In this document: positions 24,395-60,571 of the stretch, piece by piece
How the letters are laid out: each line of letters opens with the position of its first letter
Numbering within the stretch: position 1 is the first letter of the stretch
Source of the DNA: a virus
Taxonomy: Duplodnaviria > Caudoviricetes
Virus record (IMG/VR): IMGVR_UViG_3300043960_000133
Location: 25,205-89,204 of that record
Strand: one strand, 5' to 3'
DNA length: 64,000 nucleotides
Notes under the pieces: generated by a model
What the model was told of the DNA's origin: nothing
Database searches by the model: none
The model's input: only the letters and a program-made list of their open reading frames with translations
Program-made: the position numbers and the translations under genes

Positions 24395-25288
24395 ATGAAA
24401 ACACTGCACTTTGGAATCGAAATGGAAATGACAGGGATTACAAGAAACCGGGCGGCAAGCCTCATGGCCCGCTTCTTTGGAACAGAAAGCCGCCATGAAG
24501 GCGGAGCCTACGATACCTACACCGCCAAGGATGACCGGGGACGGAAATGGAAAGCCATGAACGACTCCAGCCTAATTCCGCAGAAAAAAGTGAATGGCGA
24601 AATCCTGGATGCGTCCACGAACTACCGCACCGAGGTGGTCAGCCCCATCCTTTCCTACGAAGACATTCCCAAACTGCAGGAGCTGGTGCGGACGCTCCGC
24701 AAGGCCGGGGCCTTCGCCAACAAGTCCTGCGGCATCCACATCCATGTCGGGGCCGAACGGTTCACGGCAAAGACCCTGCGGAATCTGGTAAACATCATGG
24801 CGAGCAAGGAGGACATGATTTACCGCGCTCTCCAGATTAACCCCTCACGGGAACATCGATACTGCCGGAAGACGAACACTCTCTTTCTGAAGGATCTCAA
24901 CCGGAAAAAGTCGGATACGCTCAGCGGCATCGCCGACCTCTGGTATCAGGAAGATCCCTACGGACGGGACCATCACTACAACAGCACCCGCTACCACGGA
25001 CTGAACCTGCATGCCACCTTTACCAAGGGGACGGTCGAGTTCCGCCTTTTCAACGGCACTTTACACGCCGGAGAAATCAAGGCCTACATCCAGTTCTGCC
25101 TGGCGGTTGCCCATCAGGCCCTGACGCAGAAAAAGGCCTCGGCACGGAAGACGGAAACGGACAATGAAAAATACGCCTTCCGATGCTGGATGCTCCGGCT
25201 GGGACTCATCGGTGACGAATTCAAGACCTGCCGGCTCCACTTCCTCAAACACCTTACGGGAAACTCCGCATGGCGCAACGCCGCCTGA
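24395..25288 (+). CDS. Phage amidoligase (COOH-NH2 ligase type 2)
   Basis: FGIEMEM, NDSS, EVVSPIL, SCGIHIHVG, RYHGLNL, TVEFRLF motifs. Confidence 0.85.
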   Translation: MKTLHFGIEMEMTGITRNRAASLMARFFGTESRHEGGAYDTYTAKDDRGRKWKAMNDSSLIPQKKVNGEILDASTNYRTEVVSPILSYEDIPKLQELVRTLRKAGAFANKSCGIHIHVGAERFTAKTLRNLVNIMASKEDMIYRALQINPSREHRYCRKTNTLFLKDLNRKKSDTLSGIADLWYQEDPYGRDHHYNSTRYHGLNLHATFTKGTVEFRLFNGTLHAGEIKAYIQFCLAVAHQALTQKKASARKTETDNEKYAFRCWMLRLGLIGDEFKTCRLHFLKHLTGNSAWRNAA

Positions 25289-50467: not shown

Positions 50468-51021
50468 AAGTATTCCTGAACCCCGGCCATGCGCCGGGCG
50501 GCCATCCAGACCCGGGAGCCGTCAACCGTGAAACGAACCTGCGTGAATGTGATGTGGCTCTGGCTGTAGGTGAATCTGCCGCAAGCTACTTGAATGCGGC
50601 CGGAGCAGAAAACGAGCTGCTCCAGTCCGACAGCCTGGAAGAAATCTGCGAGGCCGCCAATACCAGTGATGCCGACATCTTCGTATCCATCCATTGCAAT
50701 GCCGCCGAAGCCGAGGAAGCCAACGGCACAGAAACCTGGGCCTGCGCCGGCAGTTACCGTGGCAGCATGCTGGCCAACTGCATCCAGAGCCAGCTGGTCG
50801 ATGCCCTTGGAACCACCGACCGTGGCGTAAAAATCGCTAGGCCTGGCGTCAACGGCCTGTATGTCCTCACGAACACGGACATGCCAGCCGTCCTGGTCGA
50901 GCTAGCCTTCATCACCAATCCCCGCGATGAAGATATCCTGGCCAATGCCCAGGATGCCCTGGCCAGGGCTGTCGCCAGGGGAGTGACAGATTATGAACAG
51001 CTGATCCTGGGAGGTAAATGA
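50464..51021 (+). CDS. N-acetylmuramoyl-L-alanine amidase (Amidase_3) endolysin
   Basis: LNPGH, E, SIHCNA, VLVELAF Zn-binding and catalytic motifs. Confidence 0.92.
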   Translation: MKVFLNPGHAPGGHPDPGAVNRETNLRECDVALAVGESAASYLNAAGAENELLQSDSLEEICEAANTSDADIFVSIHCNAAEAEEANGTETWACAGSYRGSMLANCIQSQLVDALGTTDRGVKIARPGVNGLYVLTNTDMPAVLVELAFITNPRDEDILANAQDALARAVARGVTDYEQLILGGK

Positions 51022-51290
51022 CTATGAACCGTGAAGAAATCAAGAAAGCCGTCGCCAATGCCGTCGTAGACTTTGCCAAAAGTGAAGCCGAAGCGGCCAT
51101 CAAGTCCATCGACCTGGATGATGTCCAGAAGTTGGTGGAAGCGCAGATGAAGAACCTCACAGACCCGCTGGAAGCCGAAATCCAGACCACCACCAGCTGG
51201 TGGGTCAAAATCCGTAACCGCCTCTACATCACCCTGATGCAGCAGGCGGAAAAAGCCATCGTGGCTGATGTAAAACAGAAGATTGCATGA
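51018..51290 (+). CDS. Small helical protein, last gene of lysis operon
   Basis: Translationally coupled to the amidase; followed by a terminator. Confidence 0.7.
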   Translation: MTMNREEIKKAVANAVVDFAKSEAEAAIKSIDLDDVQKLVEAQMKNLTDPLEAEIQTTTSWWVKIRNRLYITLMQQAEKAIVADVKQKIA

Positions 51291-51292
51291 GC

Positions 51293-51338
51293 AAAGCCGG
51301 TACGGAACATCGGGAGGGATGTTCTGTGCCGGCTTTTT
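51293..51338 (+). terminator. Intrinsic terminator ending late operon of phage 2
   Basis: AAAGCCGGTACGGAACATC / GATGTTCTGTGCCGGCTTT stem + T-run. Confidence 0.8.
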
Positions 51339-51750
51339 GTGTTATACTAAATTAGTTATACAGCACCTTACACCTTTTAGGCAGCATACCAAAACTCTTC
51401 GGACAATTTCACCAGCGTATTGAAAACACTTGTAGATTTCCCCATAGTTTCGGAGTTTGCCCTTATAGCAATTTCCTAAATTAAAATTTCTTAAGAAACT
51501 GATGATTAAATGAGAATCTTACTCTCTTATCTACCTTCCCTTAGGGTACCCTCTAGGGGAAGGTATGCTCTCATCTACTCAGTAGCAAGTGGCAAAACCT
51601 TGCATTAATCAGTGTTTCCTTGCAGAAATTCTGCGGTCCGTATTTTTTATTTATGTAAAAGGTCTTTCGTTTTGACCATATTTTTTCAATGGGGTTCATA
51701 TTCGAACTGTGAGAGGAAAAGATATTTCAGAAACCCGCTCTATGTGTACG

Positions 51751-51774
51751 AATAGTTGTCAGTGAGAGAAATGA
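51751..51774 (+). repeat. 24-bp direct repeat copy 1 (contains IS-like left end TGTCAGTGAGAGAAATGA)
   Basis: AATAGTTGTCAGTGAGAGAAATGA identical to 59782-59805. Confidence 0.9.
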
Positions 51775-51780
51775 AACTAT

Positions 51781-52920
51781 TTGGGGAGTGATATGATGTC
51801 CGGTAGGAAAAAAAGCATAATCAGTAAAGCAAGTCCTCATACGATTAAGAAATTTGAGTTAATTGAGGAATATATAAAATCGTGGGCACAGAAGTTGCTA
51901 CTGACTGACTCTTGCAATGGGGTGATCTTTATAGACTGCATGTGCAACAGCGGTGTATACACTGATGTTGCCGGACAATTGGTAAAGGGGACGGCAGTAC
52001 GCATATCAGAAGCACTTAGGGAAGTCGCAAGAACCTATACGGATAAAAATATATATATTTACTTGAATGATATAGATAAGGAACGAGTAGCTGAACTGGA
52101 AAGTCATCTTCCGCAGGATGAGCGTAACTTTAAGATTGTCACCTCATGTAGTGATGCGCACGAATTGCTCCGAACTATCGGACCACAGTTATATGGAACC
52201 GGGCACCTGCATTATTTCTTGCTTTACGATCCATATGATGCGAACATTGACTGGGAGGCACTTCTGCCTTTTTTCCGTAACTGGGGTGAAGTTATGATTA
52301 ATCACATGGCCTCAGACCCGGTGAGGGCGATTTCAAGCGCAAAAAAAAACACAACAAAGGAAAAGTATGCGAATACTTATCTGAAAGATTTTGAGGAGCT
52401 AGTACCGTACGGAAGCAATAAGAAAGCCTATGAGGACAGAGTGGAGAAAATTATAAAATCACTGAAAGGACCGCGTAGATACTACGTATCGGCATTTCCG
52501 TTCTATAATAGGCAGAATTCACTTGTCTATAATCTGATTCATTGCACGAGCAATATAGAAGGCTTTAAGCTATACAAAAAGAGCGCTTGGAAAGTTTTTG
52601 GAGCACAGTCCTCTACAAAGCATTTGGCTGCGACTAAGTACTGGTCAGTTAATCTTTTTGGAGAAATTTCGGAAGAGGAAGATAAATGCTGTTTGCAGGT
52701 TTTTGATATTGCGAAATATCTGCAGCGATGGCTGAAAGGCCGCAAGCAAGTACCTCTTGATGAGCTATGGAAAATTTTAGATAACCATCCGATTTTTCCT
52801 TCAGAGGGATTTCGTAAGGAGATAAAAAGTAATCTTATTGATTGCTTTGGTGCGAAAGTTGAGCAGATTGTTAATTCTGAGACAGGAAAGAAGAAAACAG
52901 TGATCTCTTTATCTTCGTGA
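51781..52920 (+). CDS. TcmP-like (three-Cys-motif partner) SAM-dependent protein 1 with C-terminal extension
   Basis: HTIKKFELIEEYIKSW, FIDCMCNSG, LLYDPY; likely start ATG 51793 or 51796. Confidence 0.65.
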   Translation: MGSDMMSGRKKSIISKASPHTIKKFELIEEYIKSWAQKLLLTDSCNGVIFIDCMCNSGVYTDVAGQLVKGTAVRISEALREVARTYTDKNIYIYLNDIDKERVAELESHLPQDERNFKIVTSCSDAHELLRTIGPQLYGTGHLHYFLLYDPYDANIDWEALLPFFRNWGEVMINHMASDPVRAISSAKKNTTKEKYANTYLKDFEELVPYGSNKKAYEDRVEKIIKSLKGPRRYYVSAFPFYNRQNSLVYNLIHCTSNIEGFKLYKKSAWKVFGAQSSTKHLAATKYWSVNLFGEISEEEDKCCLQVFDIAKYLQRWLKGRKQVPLDELWKILDNHPIFPSEGFRKEIKSNLIDCFGAKVEQIVNSETGKKKTVISLSS

Positions 52921-52945
52921 GACTGGATTCAAATAAATGAGGTGA

Positions 52946-53815
52946 TTGGAATATATGGCAACGTCGCAGAAATTTGGTGGCAATTGGACTGAGGAGAAGC
53001 TGAATATCTTTACCAGCTATCTGGACGCATACTTGATTGCACTGCAAAACCAGAAATTCAAGAAGATTTATATAGACGCTTTTGCTGGAACCGGAGAGAT
53101 TGAGACAAGCGACGGCGGGCAGTATCTTGTGGGCTCCGCTAAGCGTGCACTGGCGTCTGAGAAGAAGTTCGATCACTATTATTTTATAGAAGCGGACTCT
53201 CAGAAGGCAGGAGAACTTCAGGATATGATATACGCCGAGTTTCCGCGGATGGGACGAATTGTTACGATTTACTGTGGCGATGCGAATGATAAGCTCGCGG
53301 AGATTATTAGCAGCGTAGACTGGAGCTATAACAGAGGATTGCTGTTCTTAGACCCATATGCGACGCAGGTAAATTGGACTACGCTTGAAAATGTAGCGCA
53401 GACGAAATCGATAGATGCATGGTACCTGTTTCCGTTCTCCGCACTTGAACGGATGCTGCCGAAAAACGGAAAGTACGATAAATGGGAGGATTGCATAGAT
53501 CGATTGCTTGGAGATTCCGGATGGCGAGAGGAATTCTATAAGAAAGATCCTCAGATGACGCTTTTTGACCTATTCCCGGAGCCCGGACAGAGCGATGGTG
53601 AGCAGATGGTTAAAGACGCAAATCCAGATCACATAAAGGAGTATATCCTTTCTCGGCTTGGGACAATCTTTCCATGCGTGTCAAAGCATGCACGGATTTT
53701 CAGGAACAGCAGGAACTCGCCGATGTTCCTGTTCTGTTTTGCCATTGCGAGTGAGAGTCCGAAAGCGCAGGGACTTGCATTGCGGATGGCAGATTACATA
53801 TTAAAGAACAAGTAG
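52946..53815 (+). CDS. TcmP-like SAM-dependent protein 2
   Basis: GGNWTEEKL, YIDAFAGTG (motif I-like), LLFLDPY. Confidence 0.75.
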   Translation: MEYMATSQKFGGNWTEEKLNIFTSYLDAYLIALQNQKFKKIYIDAFAGTGEIETSDGGQYLVGSAKRALASEKKFDHYYFIEADSQKAGELQDMIYAEFPRMGRIVTIYCGDANDKLAEIISSVDWSYNRGLLFLDPYATQVNWTTLENVAQTKSIDAWYLFPFSALERMLPKNGKYDKWEDCIDRLLGDSGWREEFYKKDPQMTLFDLFPEPGQSDGEQMVKDANPDHIKEYILSRLGTIFPCVSKHARIFRNSRNSPMFLFCFAIASESPKAQGLALRMADYILKNK

Positions 53816-53833
53816 GCGGAGGATGATAGCGGC

Positions 53834-54598
53834 TTGAAGACGATAAAACGAAAATCCATGCTTTATCAAACAGGGGTAGAGTATGGTGACTACACAATGA
53901 ATCACGTGCAGGGCTGCGCACATGGGTGCAAATATCCATGTTACGCCTTCCTGATGAAAAAGCGATTTGGGCAAATTAAAGATTATGAGAGCTGGCTTGA
54001 GCCGGTTCTTGTATCAAACACGCTTGAATTGCTGGATAAAGAGATACCGAAACTCAGAGATAAGATTCAGTCTGTGCAGCTTTGCTTTACTACAGATCCG
54101 TTTATGGAGGGATATCCGGAGGTATCCCAGATGAGCATTGCGGCTATTCGTAAGCTAAACGAGGCTGGTATTAGATGCACCACGCTGACGAAGGGCCTGT
54201 TACCCATAGAGTTGTCAGAGCTTTCTCCGGAAAATGAATACGGGATTACACTAATTACCCTGAACGAGGCATATCGAGAACAGATGGAACCGGGAGCAGC
54301 TCCCTGCTCAGAGAGATTGGCAGCTTTGAAAGCCTTACATGAGGCTGGATGTAAGACATGGGTAAGCATGGAACCTTATCCTACACCGAACATGGTCAAG
54401 CAGGATCTGAAGGAGCTGCTGGAAGAAGTATCCTTCACAGACCGGATCATTTTCGGTAGGACAAACTATAGCAAGGTAGCAAACGCTTACGAAGGGCATA
54501 AGCATTTTTACAATGAGTGCGCAGCAGAGGTGATTTCCTTCTGTCAAGAGCGCGGCATTGATTACCATATTAAGAAAAAAACAATAACGGAAGAATGA
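53834..54598 (+). CDS. Radical SAM enzyme (SPL-like)
   Basis: GCAHGCKYPCY (CX3CX3C), FTTDPF, TLTKG, WVSMEP. Confidence 0.8.
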   Translation: MKTIKRKSMLYQTGVEYGDYTMNHVQGCAHGCKYPCYAFLMKKRFGQIKDYESWLEPVLVSNTLELLDKEIPKLRDKIQSVQLCFTTDPFMEGYPEVSQMSIAAIRKLNEAGIRCTTLTKGLLPIELSELSPENEYGITLITLNEAYREQMEPGAAPCSERLAALKALHEAGCKTWVSMEPYPTPNMVKQDLKELLEEVSFTDRIIFGRTNYSKVANAYEGHKHFYNECAAEVISFCQERGIDYHIKKKTITEE

Positions 54599-54607
54599 GG
54601 TGGCGTT

Positions 54608-56815
54608 ATGGCATTATTACAAGACCTGATTCAGCAGATCGACGACACAGCGCTTAAGGAGAGAATCCTGCAGGAGACAAATAAATTATTGAAGCAGAAG
54701 AAGTTCGGTTTGGTGTTTGAAGAGCATCTGCCGGAATGCACGTCGCTCTATGACGTCCCGATTCGTGTTGGCTCCAAGGTCGCTCTGAAGACCGGATACG
54801 TCAGCGATATCTATACTGTCGTAAAGATTGACGGCGATGAGGTGCAATGCGACCGAAGGGAGACACATGAGCAGAAAATATTCAAGCTGGATGAGCTGGT
54901 GACTGTGGCTGAGTTTGGTGAGCCTATTTATCCGACACTTAAACCTTTGGATACCGTGGAGAACGCTCCGGATAGTGGTCTTTGGCATACCCTGATTGAA
55001 GCGGATAATTACCATGCGCTGCAGCTTCTGGAATATCTCTATGCAGAGAAGGTGGACTGTATCTATATCGATCCACCATACAACACCGGTGCAAAGGACT
55101 GGAAATACAATAACGACTATGTAGATGGCTCTGATGCGTATCGTCATAGCAAATGGCTTTCTATGATGGAGAAGCGTCTGAAGCTTGCTAAGAAATTGTT
55201 AAATCCAAAAGACTCTGTATTACTCGTCACAATCGATGAGAAAGAGTATTTGCATCTTGGATGCTTACTCGAAGAAATGTTCCCTGATGCACGTATTCAG
55301 ATGATATCAACGCTTACAAATTCAAGAGGTGTAGCACGAGATAATGGCTTTGCACGCGTCGACGAGTACATTTTTGTTATTCAGTTTGGAAGTTCAAAGG
55401 TTAATAGACTGCCTCTGAGCGATGAGTGGCGTGTAAATGTCAATGAAAACGATACAAGGGTTACACACCTACGCTGGTCTATGCTGATAAGATCCGGATC
55501 ACATTTTTTACGAAAAGATAGCGTAAATCAGTTCTATCCTATTTTTGTTTTTAATAACGGGAAGAAGATTCATTCCGTCGGAGAACCTTATTATGGAACG
55601 AATCGTGAGGAGGTTGTGGCGCCAGAAGGAACTTTTGCAGTGTGGCCTCTTCGCCGAGACGGAGAAGAAGGGAACTGGCAGATTGCAAATACTAATTTGC
55701 GTGAGCTAATTAGGCAAGGTTTTGTAATGCTCGGAAAGAAGAAGGATAACAGAATTCCGGTCTATTATCTGAAAAAAGGTGAAATTGCTAAAGTAAAGTC
55801 AGGAGTTTATGAGATTACAGGATATCGCGAAGATGGCTCTATAATTTCAGATACCGAAGTGCGTTCTCTTGTTACGGGAACACAGTGGCGGATTGGGTCA
55901 CATGATGCAAGTACTGGCGGGACGAACCTTCTTAAATCGTTCTTTGGAACAAGTAGATTTACATTTCCAAAATCGATATATGCAGTTTATGATACTATCC
56001 GTTTCTTCTTGGCAAATAAACCGAACGCTCTTGTTGTTGACTTTTTTGCGGGTTCTGGAACGACGCTTCATGCTGTCAATTTGCTTAATGCGGTTGACGA
56101 TGGAAATAGAAGATGCATTTTAGTCACAAACAACGAAGTCTCAGTAGATGAGGCGAAAGAGCTTACACTGAAGGGACTGAAGCCCGGCGATCCCCAGTGG
56201 GATTCCCTCGGAATTGCTCGACATGTGACGTGGCCTCGTACTGTGGCCAGTATGACAGGCCGAAATATCGAGGGAAAACCTTTAGATGGTTACTATGGAT
56301 TTGAAAGCGATTGCTATGAAGTAGATGAATCAATAGCTGTTGTATCGAAAGCCACAGGAAAGCCGACAAAGGCAACTGTTTATCGTAAAGGTAAAAGGCA
56401 GATGTATCCGGAACTTTGTGAGATAAAAATGGCTGATGGGTTTAAGGCAAATGCTGCCTTCTTCAAACTGAGCTTCCTCGACAAAACCTCCGTTGCTCTC
56501 GGCAGGCAGTTCCGAGAGTTGCTTCCGGTGCTCTGGATGAAGGGCGGAGCTATTGGCAAGTGCCCGGCTCTTGAAAATGATGATCTCCCGAACATGTTGA
56601 TCTTGCCGAAAAACAAAATGGCAGTTCTGATAGATGAAATATATTATTCAGAGTTCGATGCCGAATTGAGCCAGCATCCAGAAATCCAGACAGTTTTCAT
56701 TGTGACGGATTCAGAAACAGCATATCGGTCGATGATTCGTACTTACGATGACAAAGACTGCTACCAGCTTTACAGAGACTATCTGGATAATTTCAGAATC
56801 AATACGGGGAGGTAA
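54608..56815 (+). CDS. mod: Type III-like adenine DNA methyltransferase (Mod)
   Basis: EADNYHAL, IYIDPPYN, FTFPK, DFFAGSGTT. Confidence 0.88.
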   Translation: MALLQDLIQQIDDTALKERILQETNKLLKQKKFGLVFEEHLPECTSLYDVPIRVGSKVALKTGYVSDIYTVVKIDGDEVQCDRRETHEQKIFKLDELVTVAEFGEPIYPTLKPLDTVENAPDSGLWHTLIEADNYHALQLLEYLYAEKVDCIYIDPPYNTGAKDWKYNNDYVDGSDAYRHSKWLSMMEKRLKLAKKLLNPKDSVLLVTIDEKEYLHLGCLLEEMFPDARIQMISTLTNSRGVARDNGFARVDEYIFVIQFGSSKVNRLPLSDEWRVNVNENDTRVTHLRWSMLIRSGSHFLRKDSVNQFYPIFVFNNGKKIHSVGEPYYGTNREEVVAPEGTFAVWPLRRDGEEGNWQIANTNLRELIRQGFVMLGKKKDNRIPVYYLKKGEIAKVKSGVYEITGYREDGSIISDTEVRSLVTGTQWRIGSHDASTGGTNLLKSFFGTSRFTFPKSIYAVYDTIRFFLANKPNALVVDFFAGSGTTLHAVNLLNAVDDGNRRCILVTNNEVSVDEAKELTLKGLKPGDPQWDSLGIARHVTWPRTVASMTGRNIEGKPLDGYYGFESDCYEVDESIAVVSKATGKPTKATVYRKGKRQMYPELCEIKMADGFKANAAFFKLSFLDKTSVALGRQFRELLPVLWMKGGAIGKCPALENDDLPNMLILPKNKMAVLIDEIYYSEFDAELSQHPEIQTVFIVTDSETAYRSMIRTYDDKDCYQLYRDYLDNFRINTGR

Positions 56816-56817
56816 CC

Positions 56818-59700
56818 ATGAGAGTAGAATTATTCCCTTTTCAGAAAAGAGCGCTTGCTGATATCCGTATGAAGACTGCGGAGGCAATGGGTAGCTATCA
56901 CAGAACACATGCGCCGCAGGTGGTTTCTTTCACTGCACCGACTGGCGCTGGAAAGACTATCATCATGTCTGCGTTGATTGAGGCTATTTTTTTCGGCGAC
57001 GAACAGTATATGGAGCAGCCTGATGCAATCATTGTCTGGCTCTCGGATTCGCCTCAGCTTAACGAGCAGTCAAAACAAAAGATCGACTCAAAAGCTGATA
57101 AGATCAAGCTGTCGCAGTGCGTAACGGTTTCCGAGGAATCCTTTGATAAAGAGATGTTTGAGGATGGTCATGTTTATTTCTTAAATACGCAGAAGTTGTC
57201 GGTTACCTCCAAGCTCACGAAAAACGGCGATGGCAGGACTTATACGATCTGGCAGACGCTTGCAAATACTGCCCGGGAAAAGAACGACCGGCTGTACTTT
57301 ATCATCGATGAAGCACACCGTGGCATGCAGGGACGTGAGGCCAGCAAGGCTACCACGATCATGCAGAAGTTCATCAAGGGCAGTGATTCGGATGGCATTC
57401 CGCCCATGCCGGTTGTCATCGGTATGTCCGCTACCACGCAGAGATTCAATGCGCTGGTCGAAGGCACATCCTCTACAATTCACAAGTCTATCGTGACGAC
57501 GGATGAGGTGCGAGCTTCTGGTCTATTAAAAGACCGGATCGTTATTACCTATCCGGAAGAAGGCACGGTCAATAATGATATGGCCATTTTGCAAGCTGCT
57601 GCGGATGACTGGAAGGAAAAGTGGGAACACTGGACGCAGTATTGCTTTGAGCAGCACTACGCCTATGTAAATCCGATCTTGATTATTCAGGTTTTGAACG
57701 GAACAGGTGATGCTCTGACGGATACCAATCTGGACGACTGTATTGCAAAGATCGAGGAACGTACCGGCTTTAAGCTGGAAAGTGGACAGGTGGTTCATAC
57801 TTTCAGTGGCACGACAGCCACATTGACCGTCAATGGGCTCGACGTGCGTTATGAAGAGCCTTCTAATATCGCCGAGGACAGAAATATCCGTGTGGTATTC
57901 TTCAAAGAGAATCTTTCCACAGGATGGGATTGCCCGCGAGCAGAGACCATGATGTCCTTTAAGCATGCTAATGATGCCACCTACATAGCGCAGCTTCTCG
58001 GTCGAATGGTAAGAACACCGATGCAGATGCATATTCAGGTGGACGACGTTTTGAACGACGTGCATCTCTATTTGCCGTACTTCAATGAGGATACCGTGAA
58101 GGACGTTGTGGAAGCCTTGCAGAGCACAGAAGGCGGAGATATTCCGACCGATATTTATGGCGAGCCCCTGTCTGGAAAGAAATTTGAAACACTGACTGTC
58201 AGGCCGAAGAAGAAAAAGGAAGAGCAGCAGATACCGGGACAGATGACTTTATTTGATGTGTTCTCTGGGCAGAACACAGGCGAACAGCAGTCTGCGGAAG
58301 CAACTTCGGAGCCAACTGGCAACACGACTCCGATAGCACAGCCTCAAGCTACTGGTGGACAAGCACAGCAAGCAGAAACGCCAGAACGGTGCCAGACACA
58401 GTCGAGTACAGATACAACACCTCCTGCCCAGTCTACACCGGTTACTCCACAGTCCTCTGGTATGGCAACACCGTCCGAGAATAATGCTGCGGGAAGTCAG
58501 CAGGCGGTTCAGACGGAAACTTCTGAAGAGGAAGATCTGTTTGATCGTGAAGAGGTTATGAAGTTTATAAATGATGCAGGTTTGCTTTCCTATAACGTCA
58601 GAGCGCTTAGGATCAATAACTACCTAAAATCTTTGTATAAGATGGCACATCTTCTTACGATGTCCAAATTGCACCGTGAGGCGATCCGGGAGGTTCAGGA
58701 TGAGATTGTTGAGATAATCCACAGCTATGTGGAAGGCCTCAAGGCAGATGGGAAATATGATGACCTTGTTCAGCAGGTCAAACAGTTCAAACTGGCGACC
58801 CAGATTTTTGATGCCTTCGGAGAAACTGTGGATAACTTTTCGGTGCATGATATGTTCACGACGACGGATACTGATATCGATCGACAATTTCAGATTGCCG
58901 AAGTAAAGCTCGGTCGAGAAGGTATCGGTATGGCTTATGGAAAGAAGTATATGGATATGTCCGATCTGTCGGCATTTAAAGTTGACGTTATTCTCTTTGT
59001 GGCAGATGAAGAGTGTATGAATCGGTTGCATTCCTATGCGGAGACGCGCTTTCATGGATTGAATGATGATTATCGCAGATATTTTGCAACTATAGATTCA
59101 GAGAAAATTCGTAAAGCGTATGACAGTATCGTTTCCGATGGCGATCCTGTAAGCAAGCACAATTTCCGTTTGCCAGAGACCATTCAGGTACCACATGAAG
59201 TGGGGGGCAAAGAATATAGGGATCATCTCTTTGTTAGTGATATAACCGGTGTTGCAACGATGAAGTTGAATACTTGGGAAGCCGGAGTTATTGAAGAGGA
59301 AGAAAAACGAGAAGACTTTGTCTGCTGGATTCGTAATCCATCCAGAGGCTCATGGGCGCTTTGCATTCCTTACGAAATCGATGGTGAAATAAGGCCTGCC
59401 TATCCCGATTTTATTATCGTAAGAAAAGATCGTGTACTTGGATATGTCGTTGATGTTCTTGAACCACATAATCCTGATTTCAAGGACAATCTTGGAAAAG
59501 CGAAAGGATTTACAGAGTATGCAAAACAGAATCCGGGTGTGGGAAGAATTCAGCTAATTCGTATGAGTAAAAATGCAGCCGGAAACCACAAGTTTAAAAG
59601 ACTGGATATGTCTAAAACAGCTATTCGAGAAAAAGTCTCTCATGCTATAAATACAGATGAACTCGATCACATATTTGATACGGATGGAGTTATCGAATAA
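56818..59700 (+). CDS. res: Type III-like restriction subunit (SF2 helicase + PD-(D/E)xK nuclease)
   Basis: APTGAGKT, IIDEAH, MSAT, GWDCPRA, GRMVR; C-terminal YPDF...LEPH. Confidence 0.85.
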   Translation: MRVELFPFQKRALADIRMKTAEAMGSYHRTHAPQVVSFTAPTGAGKTIIMSALIEAIFFGDEQYMEQPDAIIVWLSDSPQLNEQSKQKIDSKADKIKLSQCVTVSEESFDKEMFEDGHVYFLNTQKLSVTSKLTKNGDGRTYTIWQTLANTAREKNDRLYFIIDEAHRGMQGREASKATTIMQKFIKGSDSDGIPPMPVVIGMSATTQRFNALVEGTSSTIHKSIVTTDEVRASGLLKDRIVITYPEEGTVNNDMAILQAAADDWKEKWEHWTQYCFEQHYAYVNPILIIQVLNGTGDALTDTNLDDCIAKIEERTGFKLESGQVVHTFSGTTATLTVNGLDVRYEEPSNIAEDRNIRVVFFKENLSTGWDCPRAETMMSFKHANDATYIAQLLGRMVRTPMQMHIQVDDVLNDVHLYLPYFNEDTVKDVVEALQSTEGGDIPTDIYGEPLSGKKFETLTVRPKKKKEEQQIPGQMTLFDVFSGQNTGEQQSAEATSEPTGNTTPIAQPQATGGQAQQAETPERCQTQSSTDTTPPAQSTPVTPQSSGMATPSENNAAGSQQAVQTETSEEEDLFDREEVMKFINDAGLLSYNVRALRINNYLKSLYKMAHLLTMSKLHREAIREVQDEIVEIIHSYVEGLKADGKYDDLVQQVKQFKLATQIFDAFGETVDNFSVHDMFTTTDTDIDRQFQIAEVKLGREGIGMAYGKKYMDMSDLSAFKVDVILFVADEECMNRLHSYAETRFHGLNDDYRRYFATIDSEKIRKAYDSIVSDGDPVSKHNFRLPETIQVPHEVGGKEYRDHLFVSDITGVATMKLNTWEAGVIEEEEKREDFVCWIRNPSRGSWALCIPYEIDGEIRPAYPDFIIVRKDRVLGYVVDVLEPHNPDFKDNLGKAKGFTEYAKQNPGVGRIQLIRMSKNAAGNHKFKRLDMSKTAIREKVSHAINTDELDHIFDTDGVIE

Positions 59701-59787
59701 GGAGAATTTCCATTATGGAAAATGAGCGACACTCATTGTCGCTGCTCTTTCAAAATAGAGCCTTTCCCTATGTATCATCACAATAGT

Positions 59788-59998
59788 TGTCAGTGAGAGA
59801 AATGAGCTTTTGCGGTATAATTGAGGTACCATAGAACGAAGATGACAGCCATACAGTGTAGCAACGAACTCCGCAAAGCCATTCTTCGCCGTATCCTGCC
59901 GCCGAACAGTGAACCTATCAGCCGAGTCGTATCCGAGGAGGGAATCCCCAGCAGACTATCCGTTTTTCGTGAGAGAATGGCTCACTTTTTCACTGACA
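59788..59998 (+). mobile_element. Internally deleted IS3/IS481-like miniature element (about 211 bp)
   Basis: TG...CA ends; IRL TGTCAGTGAGAGAAATGAGC versus IRR (reverse complement) TGTCAGTGAAAAAGTGAGC; internal fragment SNELRKAILRRILPPNSEPISRVVSEEGI resembles a transposase OrfA N-terminus. Confidence 0.65.
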
Positions 59999-60067
59999 TT
60001 CACAACACTGCAACGAAGGCTGTTATAGGTATAACATAGCTGTACTTATTATTTAAGTGCAAGTAAT

Positions 60068-60105
60068 AAAAAACGGATGCTCATTACGGGCATCCGTTTT
60101 TTTTT
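60068..60105. terminator. Bidirectional terminator
   Basis: AAAAAACGGATGC...GCATCCGTTTTTTTTT. Confidence 0.75.
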
Positions 60106-60178
60106 GCCTTCATAGTACTTAACGATAGCCGTTTTGTCCTATTACTCCTGAAGACCAAAATTTCAGGAGGTGTCCATC

Positions 60179-60571
60179 ATGACGGACGAACAGAAACAAC
60201 AGATCATTGCCCTGCGCCGGGATGGGGCGGGGTATGGCAGGATAGCGGCGCAGCTCCAGATTTCCATCAATACGGTGAAATCGTTCTGCAGGCGGCACAG
60301 CTTGGCTGCGGAGATGACGGCATCGGTTTGTGAGCAGTGCGGCCAGCCGATTGAACAGAATCCTGGACGGAAGCGGAAACGGTTCTGCTCGGATTCCTGC
60401 CGGAACAAGTGGTGGAATGCTCATCTGGAGCTGGTGAAGCGGAAGGCAGTCTACACCTTCACCTGTCCGGCCTGCGGGAAAGAATTCACCGTCTACGGCA
60501 ACAGGCATCGGAAGTTCTGCTCCCACGCCTGCTATATCGCTTATCGGTTCGGAGGTGTACGCCATGGATAA
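60179..60571 (+). CDS. HTH + zinc-ribbon protein associated with recombinase module
   Basis: GAGYGRIAAQLQISINTVKSFCRR; CEQCG...FCSDSC; CPACG...FCSHAC. Confidence 0.8.
   Translation: MTDEQKQQIIALRRDGAGYGRIAAQLQISINTVKSFCRRHSLAAEMTASVCEQCGQPIEQNPGRKRKRFCSDSCRNKWWNAHLELVKRKAVYTFTCPACGKEFTVYGNRHRKFCSHACYIAYRFGGVRHG

Follow-up and report, generated by a model that had tools for sequence, protein, structure and literature searches.

TcmP and radical-SAM genes ahead of a type III restriction-modification operon in the cargo slot of a temperate phage

Introduction

Gene pairs encoding a TcmP protein and a three-Cys enzyme, catalogued as NCBIfam TIGR04474 and Pfam PF07505 (DUF5131, 'phage Gp37/Gp68'), are found in thousands of genomes and phages. 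In RadicalSAM.org, DUF5131 and spore photoproduct lyase form sister sub-clusters of Megacluster-5 (PMC9477430), and the PADLOC collection includes 145 PDC candidates defined by their embedding in restriction-type systems, which for PDC-M30 and PDC-M41 are BREX, DISARM or type I systems (bioRxiv 10.1101/2024.01.29.577857). Here, we describe a cassette of five genes on a stretch of viral DNA of 64,000 nucleotides (hereafter the window; positions 25,205 to 89,204 of the IMG/VR record IMGVR_UViG_3300043960_000133, Duplodnaviria, Caudoviricetes), in which two TcmP genes and a radical S-adenosylmethionine (SAM) gene precede the mod and res genes of a type III restriction-modification system. The window is the terminal part of this provirus record, and we interpret the carrier as a temperate phage of a gut-type Clostridia host. 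An earlier note on this DNA had proposed that the three extra enzymes make a mark that the Res nuclease reads, the five genes together forming a new composite defence system. The reading we prefer, and to which we give an even chance of being right, is that the cassette is a horizontally acquired operon of ~8 kb that joins an autonomous TcmP/radical-SAM accessory unit to an ordinary type III system.

Results

Gene content of the cassette

The cassette consists of five open reading frames (ORFs) on the plus strand between window positions 51781 and 59700, which encode, in this order, TcmP1, TcmP2, the radical-SAM protein, Mod and Res (Table 1) and are separated by gaps of 25, 18, 9 and 2 nt. 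The ORF list bears out the co-oriented, tightly packed operon described in the earlier note, whose gene identities also proved right by profile matches (TIGR04474 for both TcmPs, PF04055, MTase_III and ResIII) and whose quoted motifs are present in the translations. The cassette is indeed richer in AT: its G+C content is 0.40-0.49, and most of the backbone of the phage lies at 0.51-0.59. None of the five genes departs in length from its homologues, and all look intact; since TcmP1 homologues are 374-375 aa long, the start of this gene is probably the ATG at 51793 rather than the TTG at 51781. Strong intrinsic terminators flank the cargo on both sides, and none of comparable strength lies inside it. 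An Rfam scan of positions 51000-60300 gave no match, nor did a megablast search with the 8.8-kb region retrieve anything from Escherichia coli genomes or GenBank phages.

TcmP and the radical-SAM enzyme as one unit

Related loci were collected via the radical-SAM protein, yielding 38 viral loci and 80 genome loci from ~80 species, the latter being the 80 best of at least 598 matches. In the genome set, 76 of 79 loci have a TcmP-type gene immediately ahead of the radical-SAM gene, as do nearly all viral loci. The two proteins are also found as natural fusions, P0247 (634 aa) and P0261 (592 aa), the first of which is a single open frame on four contigs from three independent sources (L223:5173-7077). 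Because of this adjacency and the natural fusions, TcmP and the radical-SAM enzyme are, as judged from gene context, one unit. In an even sample of 301 genomes from the class of one host (Faecalicatena), TcmP scored above the cut-off in 11 genomes, and when the query's own genome is excluded, its neighbour belongs to the radical-SAM family of the window in 7 of 10 TcmP-bearing genomes.

Association with restriction systems

Linkage of the trio to mod and res in other genomes, which had been set as a check on the proposed operon, was confirmed by the neighbourhood survey: a type III Mod gene directly follows the radical-SAM gene in 39 of the 76 genome loci with a readable downstream gene, a figure that is biased to close relatives as it stems from the best 80 of at least 598 matches. 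All five genes recur in every one of the nearest relatives, those with a radical-SAM protein of 77% identity or more; one step further out, TcmP2 is missing while TcmP1, radical SAM, Mod and Res are kept. The order TcmP, radical SAM, Mod, Res is retained, and the genes beyond Res vary (AbiU-like, GmrSD-like and others). Among 29 complete loci, the pairwise identities of TcmP1 and Res (Spearman 0.89), radical SAM and Res (0.73), and Mod and Res (0.76) are correlated; on these sequence comparisons, the four genes have diverged together, and in this clade the unit has travelled with Mod-Res.

Elsewhere, this unit stands ahead of restriction modules of types I, II and IV or of unrelated genes. What follows it in other clades may be GmrSD together with a type II nuclease, a nicking endonuclease accompanied by two methyltransferases, type II pairs, HEC-07, type I methyltransferases, a C5 methyltransferase, or unknowns. 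On a quick tree of the radical-SAM proteins, the type III label is clustered (11 changes vs. 37.5 in shuffles), with at least six gains or losses across well-supported branches, and unrelated type III families stand beside the pair in three loci (L038, L106 and L115). TcmP1 can be 84% identical where Mod is only 58% identical via changes in its specificity region. The hosts span Lachnospiraceae, Oscillospiraceae, Negativicutes, Synergistaceae, Muribaculaceae, Chloroflexota, and Spirochaetales, and the unit therefore spreads by horizontal transfer. The composite defence operon of the earlier note thus survives as far as co-carriage and co-divergence with Mod-Res are concerned, but not as an obligate link, as the unit is found with type I, II or IV systems or alone.

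The radical-SAM enzyme

The radical-SAM protein passes the cut-off of PF04055 (41.6 vs. 29.5 bits), and its match to DUF5131 (PF07505) reaches 22.3 bits, below the cut-off of 28.9 bits, over residues 12-107 only; it is a distant relative of the PF07505 family. The best fold match of its AlphaFold2 (AF2) model (pLDDT 96.9) is spore photoproduct lyase (Foldseek, E = 2e-7, TM 0.65-0.68), at least 87 solved radical-SAM-type chains match the model at E ≤ 0.001, and RlmN is among the fold matches. A profile of 36 family members had a single clear match in the PDB, the lyase structure 4fhc (hmmsearch, E = 2.6e-4, residues 7-191), and a single-sequence search of the PDB gave nothing useful. The nearest NCBIfam families are the 'DNA repair photolyase'-type PA0069 and Rv2578c, with scores far below their cut-offs, and close homologues are named 'radical SAM protein' by NCBI. 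The Cys triad, T-K and E-P...R are common to the family and to spore photoproduct lyase. The column of the catalytic Cys140 of the lyase is occupied by Phe85 (in the stretch 'LCFTTDP'), and the adjacent Cys84 varies among family members. As Cys140 pairs with Phe85, the chemistry cannot be that of the lyase.

The cluster motif, C28-x3-C32-x3-C36, does not follow the canonical Cx3Cx2C pattern. C28, H30, C32 and C36 are invariant in the family, and the third Cys aligns with that of the Cx3Cx2C members, with a Pro inserted before it. Among 150 representatives, 85 have Cx3Cx3C, 20 have Cx3Cx2C, and 45 are fragments without the motif. The 'non-canonical' motif pointed out in the earlier note is thus present, but it does not define a new cluster type, since it is a one-Pro insertion within a family that also has Cx3Cx2C. 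This is a large family: over 7,600 close proteins were retrieved, and a search of clusters built at 50% identity matched 2,343 of them (E ≤ 0.001). Three longer relatives (P0244, P0246 and P0322) have extra domains without an informative Pfam match; in P0244 (1002 aa), ~745 extra N-terminal residues ahead of the radical-SAM domain match nothing in Pfam or NCBIfam and none of the window proteins.

The TcmP proteins

Both TcmP proteins exceed the TIGR04474 cut-off of 53 bits (TcmP1, 104.5 bits; TcmP2, 193 bits), and among the PADLOC models TcmP1 has a match to PDC-M30A (E = 5e-17) and TcmP2 one to PDC-M41A (E = 7e-87). TcmP1 carries the loop DCMCNSG and the motif YDPY, and its AF2 model (pLDDT 86.7) shows a class I SAM methyltransferase fold followed by a C-terminal tail of three helices and two strands of the winged-helix type. 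Of the solved structures, RlmJ is closest to this fold (Z 15.1, rmsd 3.5 over 214 aa), with Trm1 next. RlmJ is an rRNA N6-adenine methyltransferase and Trm1 a tRNA enzyme, both being nucleic-acid amino-methyltransferases. Seven residues (D48, G54, D146, P147, E166, N170 and R178) are invariant among 34 relatives of two subtypes and include the Asp and Gly of the SAM loop and the DPY motif.

TcmP2 is restricted to part of the family. Its SAM loop has the canonical form DAFAGTG, it carries an LDPY motif, and the protein is only distantly paralogous to TcmP1 (28% identity over 119 aa). Neither a sequence search of the PDB with TcmP2 nor a TcmP profile run against the PDB gave anything useful. The TcmP genes upstream of the radical-SAM gene fall into three subtypes, with proteins of 375 aa, 400 aa (with a canonical FAGKG loop) and 289 aa. 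A close homologue of TcmP1 (82% identity) occurs on ~1000 contigs, many of them from Agathobacter of the human gut, a count that refers to TcmP1 and not to the operon, and NCBI names such close homologues TcmP.

Mod and Res

Mod is readily assigned, with a match to the PADLOC model MTase_III (E = 9e-185), a match to PF01555, and matches to the solved type III Mod structures 6k0w, 7dsu and 4zcf (E = 1e-25 to 5e-19), EcoP15I Mod being matched at E = 5e-19. Its relatives are 51-94% identical while the neighbouring genes are conserved, as expected for specificity-domain exchange. Res belongs to PF04851 (ResIII, E = 3.8e-15) and is a superfamily 2 helicase with GAGKT and DEAH motifs. Its match to the PADLOC REase_III models is weak (E = 4e-8), the motif of its C-terminal nuclease-like region was seen by eye only, and a sequence search of the PDB matched no solved structure. 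In all relatives, Res follows Mod, with identities of 47-98%. Taken together, Mod and Res of the window probably make up a complete, ordinary type III restriction-modification system.

Res also contains a low-complexity linker rich in Q, T, P and S, which is unusual for a type III Res; it comprises ~130 residues (~470-600; window 58230-58620) and separates the helicase from the C-terminal part. In a locus on the chromosome of Mitsuokella multacida (L058), Mod, downstream of the radical-SAM gene, is split into ORFs of 216, 102 and 418 aa ahead of an intact Res, and this split gene may be broken or phase-variable.

Regulatory genes in relatives

A Cro/C1-type helix-turn-helix (HTH) gene and/or an M78 (CapP/ImmA-like) peptidase gene lies upstream in 23 of the 53 genome loci with enough upstream sequence. 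In many relatives (within L003-L025 and L043-L116), both are present upstream of TcmP: the HTH gene (76-100 aa) heads the operon, and the M78 gene (~645 aa, with a CapP/ImmA-like core) is divergently transcribed where seen. This arrangement fits an inducible, defence-type operon, and the two genes may act as a switch by which damage or infection controls the entire restriction operon. Both genes have been lost from the window cassette. No LexA-type box was found upstream of the cassette, and matches to the pattern in the window occur at the count expected by chance.

The cargo slot and the edges of the cassette

The slot that holds the cassette is bordered upstream by an amidase endolysin gene and a small gene, and downstream by an HTH/zinc-ribbon gene followed by two large serine recombinase genes. 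We gathered 80 sister phages (L124-L203) via the endolysin and compared them with the window by blastn. The slot is empty in 12 of them (L126-130, L148, L152, L154, L160-162 and L193), so that the sequence at ~51343 joins that at ~60100, and others have 0.5-9 kb of different DNA at the same point. The largest genes of ten such cargoes encode mostly type II methyltransferases and nucleases. These empty and alternative slots identify the DNA between the two junctions as inserted cargo in a slot that usually holds restriction genes, and they verify the position between the lysis and integration modules that the earlier note had assigned to it. Other cargo of this slot includes a PDC-S37/Mko-like protein and a YadA-type adhesin with an SLH domain.

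The cassette itself is a fragment of a larger element that was cut at both ends, as the alignment with its closest related elements shows. On the left, homology to L003 and L007 begins in the last ~20 nt of their HTH gene, which precedes TcmP. On the right, the alignment with L003 passes the Res stop codon, runs ~50 nt into the next gene, and ends at ~59768; the full counterpart of this sixth gene in L003 encodes 1010 aa and matches the GmrSD-like PADLOC models HEC-06/Orf5. A 24-nt direct repeat brackets the five genes and is present in exactly two copies in the window, with none expected by chance; the 3' part of its left copy overlaps the start of the cassette's homology to other elements. 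Neither the first 38 related viral loci nor the rest of IMG/VR contain this repeat, which may be an attachment-type site or a short-homology junction. An insertion sequence (IS)-type origin is not supported, as the flanking repeat is direct and the two edges share no inverted pair of 14 nt or more. An ORF of 72 aa (59821-60039), located past the right copy of the repeat and ahead of the terminator, matches no Pfam family.

Table 1. Features of the cassette and its cargo slot, in window coordinates.
Feature	Coordinates	Strand	Remarks
Left terminator	51293..51336	+	19-pair stem followed by a T-run; closes the lysis module, just before the cargo edge
Inserted cargo	51344..60099		~8.76 kb, sized against sister phages with an empty slot
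24-nt direct repeat, left copy	51751..51774	+	AATAGTTGTCAGTGAGAGAAATGA; perfect
TcmP1	51793..52920	+	375 aa from ATG; ORF opens at TTG 51781
TcmP2	52946..53815	+	289 aa, standard-length TcmP
Radical-SAM enzyme	53834..54598	+	254 aa, spore-photoproduct-lyase-like group
Type III Mod	54608..56815	+	735 aa
Type III Res	56818..59700	+	960 aa
Sixth-gene stub	59715..59768	+	first ~18 codons of a GmrSD/DUF262-type gene, truncated here
24-nt direct repeat, right copy	59782..59805	+	8031 nt from the left copy
Right terminator	60068..60102	+	15-pair stem followed by a T-run; backbone homology resumes here

Discussion

The repeated attachment of the TcmP/radical-SAM unit to different restriction types, on one strand and with tiny gaps, fits the pattern of an embedded accessory defence as described for the PADLOC PDC candidates. 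In the reading we prefer, the unit would form an additional layer within restriction operons, co-expressed with the restriction genes, and it would not be the source of a mark read by Res. Its substrate is most likely a nucleic acid and probably DNA, as suggested by the lyase-like partner, the winged-helix tail of the modelled TcmP1, and the constant company of DNA-targeting systems. In the mechanism that we envisage, TcmP, with its RlmJ/Trm1-like fold and DPY pocket, would bind DNA (the most likely nucleic acid) with one base flipped out, and radical chemistry on this base or its neighbour would fall to the radical-SAM partner.

Several observations weigh against this interpretation. A literature search on TcmP, DUF5131, PDC-M30/M41, and radical SAM in connection with restriction found no functional study. 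The neighbourhood count carries the bias described above, and the co-divergence with Mod-Res could be hitch-hiking on one mobile element. The fusion P0247 is flanked by ABC-transporter genes on the opposite strand and has no restriction gene nearby, and a radical-SAM gene with 49% identity and a canonical Cx3Cx2C motif (L041:8001-8768) stands solo, without TcmP, on a lytic-phage-like contig with dozens of small genes, ParB-like genes among them. As for the proteins themselves, the radical-SAM enzyme has a Phe where the lyase has its catalytic Cys, generic methyltransferases score only ~2 Z below RlmJ for TcmP1, and since the top structural matches of TcmP are RNA methyltransferases, the substrate could be RNA.

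It is improbable, in our view, that the pair merely shares one successful mobile cassette with a type III system to which it is unrelated, without any common regulation or function. In favour of such mere co-carriage, the phage slot hosts many different restriction cargoes, the cassette was cut at both ends from a larger element, and the genes beyond Res vary; yet the core order from TcmP to Res is kept while these outer genes change, the association with restriction recurs across clades and restriction types, and the genes lie closely spaced on a single strand.

We similarly regard as an unlikely explanation that the unit is a DNA-damage response or repair module, which would repair or process lesions and ride with restriction systems either because both are carried by mobile elements or because it limits self-damage. 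CapP/ImmA-like M78 peptidases with an HTH protein are a type of regulator that responds to DNA damage, and such genes are found upstream in relatives; in addition, spore photoproduct lyase is the nearest fold and profile match, and the nearest NCBIfam families are of the 'DNA repair photolyase' type. However, the window copy has neither these regulators nor an upstream LexA-type box (pattern matches equal the chance count), the position of the catalytic Cys of the lyase is a Phe, and the sporadic distribution among genomes of the class (11 of 301) suits a mobile accessory and not core repair.

We consider quite unlikely the composite system of the earlier note, in which the trio provides host DNA with a second epigenetic mark or a hypermodified base that Res reads or is blocked by. 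The gaps of 2-25 nt, the presence of Mod-Res after the pair in about half of the loci, the close correlation between TcmP1 and Res, the presence of unrelated type III families beside the pair, and folds typical of base-flipping nucleic-acid enzymes all speak for it. On the other hand, type III systems are complete with Mod and Res only, and the pair is also found with type I, II and IV systems, including those of the GmrSD type, or, as in the P0247 fusion, without a nearby restriction gene. GmrSD-type enzymes attack modified DNA. Moreover, the specificity region of Mod has been exchanged without a matching change in TcmP or the radical-SAM protein. The claim that the trio makes a mark read by Res is thus weakened by the occurrence of the unit with other restriction types or alone and by the conservation of TcmP where Mod has diverged, and the autonomous-accessory reading is more economical.

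Finally, a back-up abortive infection, in which the unit would modify tRNA or rRNA and halt translation once the restriction system is inhibited, like PrrC inside EcoprrI, is very unlikely: although the best TcmP fold matches are the rRNA and tRNA methyltransferases RlmJ, Trm1 and MnmM, RlmN is among those of the radical-SAM protein, and PrrC logic has been discussed for the PDC candidates with their restriction-type embedding (bioRxiv 10.1101/2024.01.29.577857), the top radical-SAM match acts on DNA, the TcmP tail is winged-helix-like, and nothing points to a latent toxin or to the sensing of anti-restriction proteins.

A more specific proposal, which we regard as unlikely, is that TcmP and the radical-SAM enzyme jointly make an undescribed, radical-SAM-dependent modification of DNA bases, either a self-mark or a lesion in phage DNA, in concert with the restriction module that follows. 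If true, this would represent a new chemical class of modification-based immunity on phages and mobile elements. The operon offers a defined genetic frame for studying function: it is predicted to be transcribed as one unit, its partner system is known, and each of its parts is absent from some natural variant. Should the radical-SAM enzyme take part in restriction-type immunity or DNA modification, phage defence would gain a new kind of chemistry and perhaps a DNA mark not seen before; otherwise, the pair would be a common cargo of restriction islands.

Comparison with known systems

The description as a new system was overstated, as TIGR04474 and the PADLOC candidates PDC-M30/M41 already cover the pair. 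As in the catalogued TcmP/three-Cys pair (TIGR04474 with PF07505), TcmP of the window precedes a small three-Cys iron-sulfur enzyme, and both are mobile and sporadic. The window differs in its partner enzyme, which is of a spore-photoproduct-lyase-like family and below the threshold for DUF5131, in having two TcmP paralogues instead of one, and in the long-standing joining of the cassette to a type III operon. These three features, with the lyase-like protein replacing DUF5131, set it apart from the catalogued form. With PDC-M30 and PDC-M41, the window shares the A components, which match its TcmPs, and the context of a restriction operon, but its system is of type III, and the module is located in front of it and not inside. 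The PDC B components give only weak matches, over the first ~80 residues (E = 8.9e-5, 20 bits, and E = 4.8e-4, 17.7 bits).

SplB (PDB 4fhc) is the best structural match of the radical-SAM enzyme and its sole significant PDB profile match, and it shares the Cys triad, T-K and E-P...R. It is longer (~340 aa vs. 254 aa), differs from the window enzyme with its Cx3Cx3C spacing and its Phe85 in the Cys140 column, and belongs to sporulation, whereas the window enzyme is found among mobile-element and restriction genes. Compared to type III systems of the EcoP15I type, the window has the same succession of Mod and Res in one operon, but it adds three genes upstream, and its Res combines a long low-complexity linker with a weak match to REase_III.

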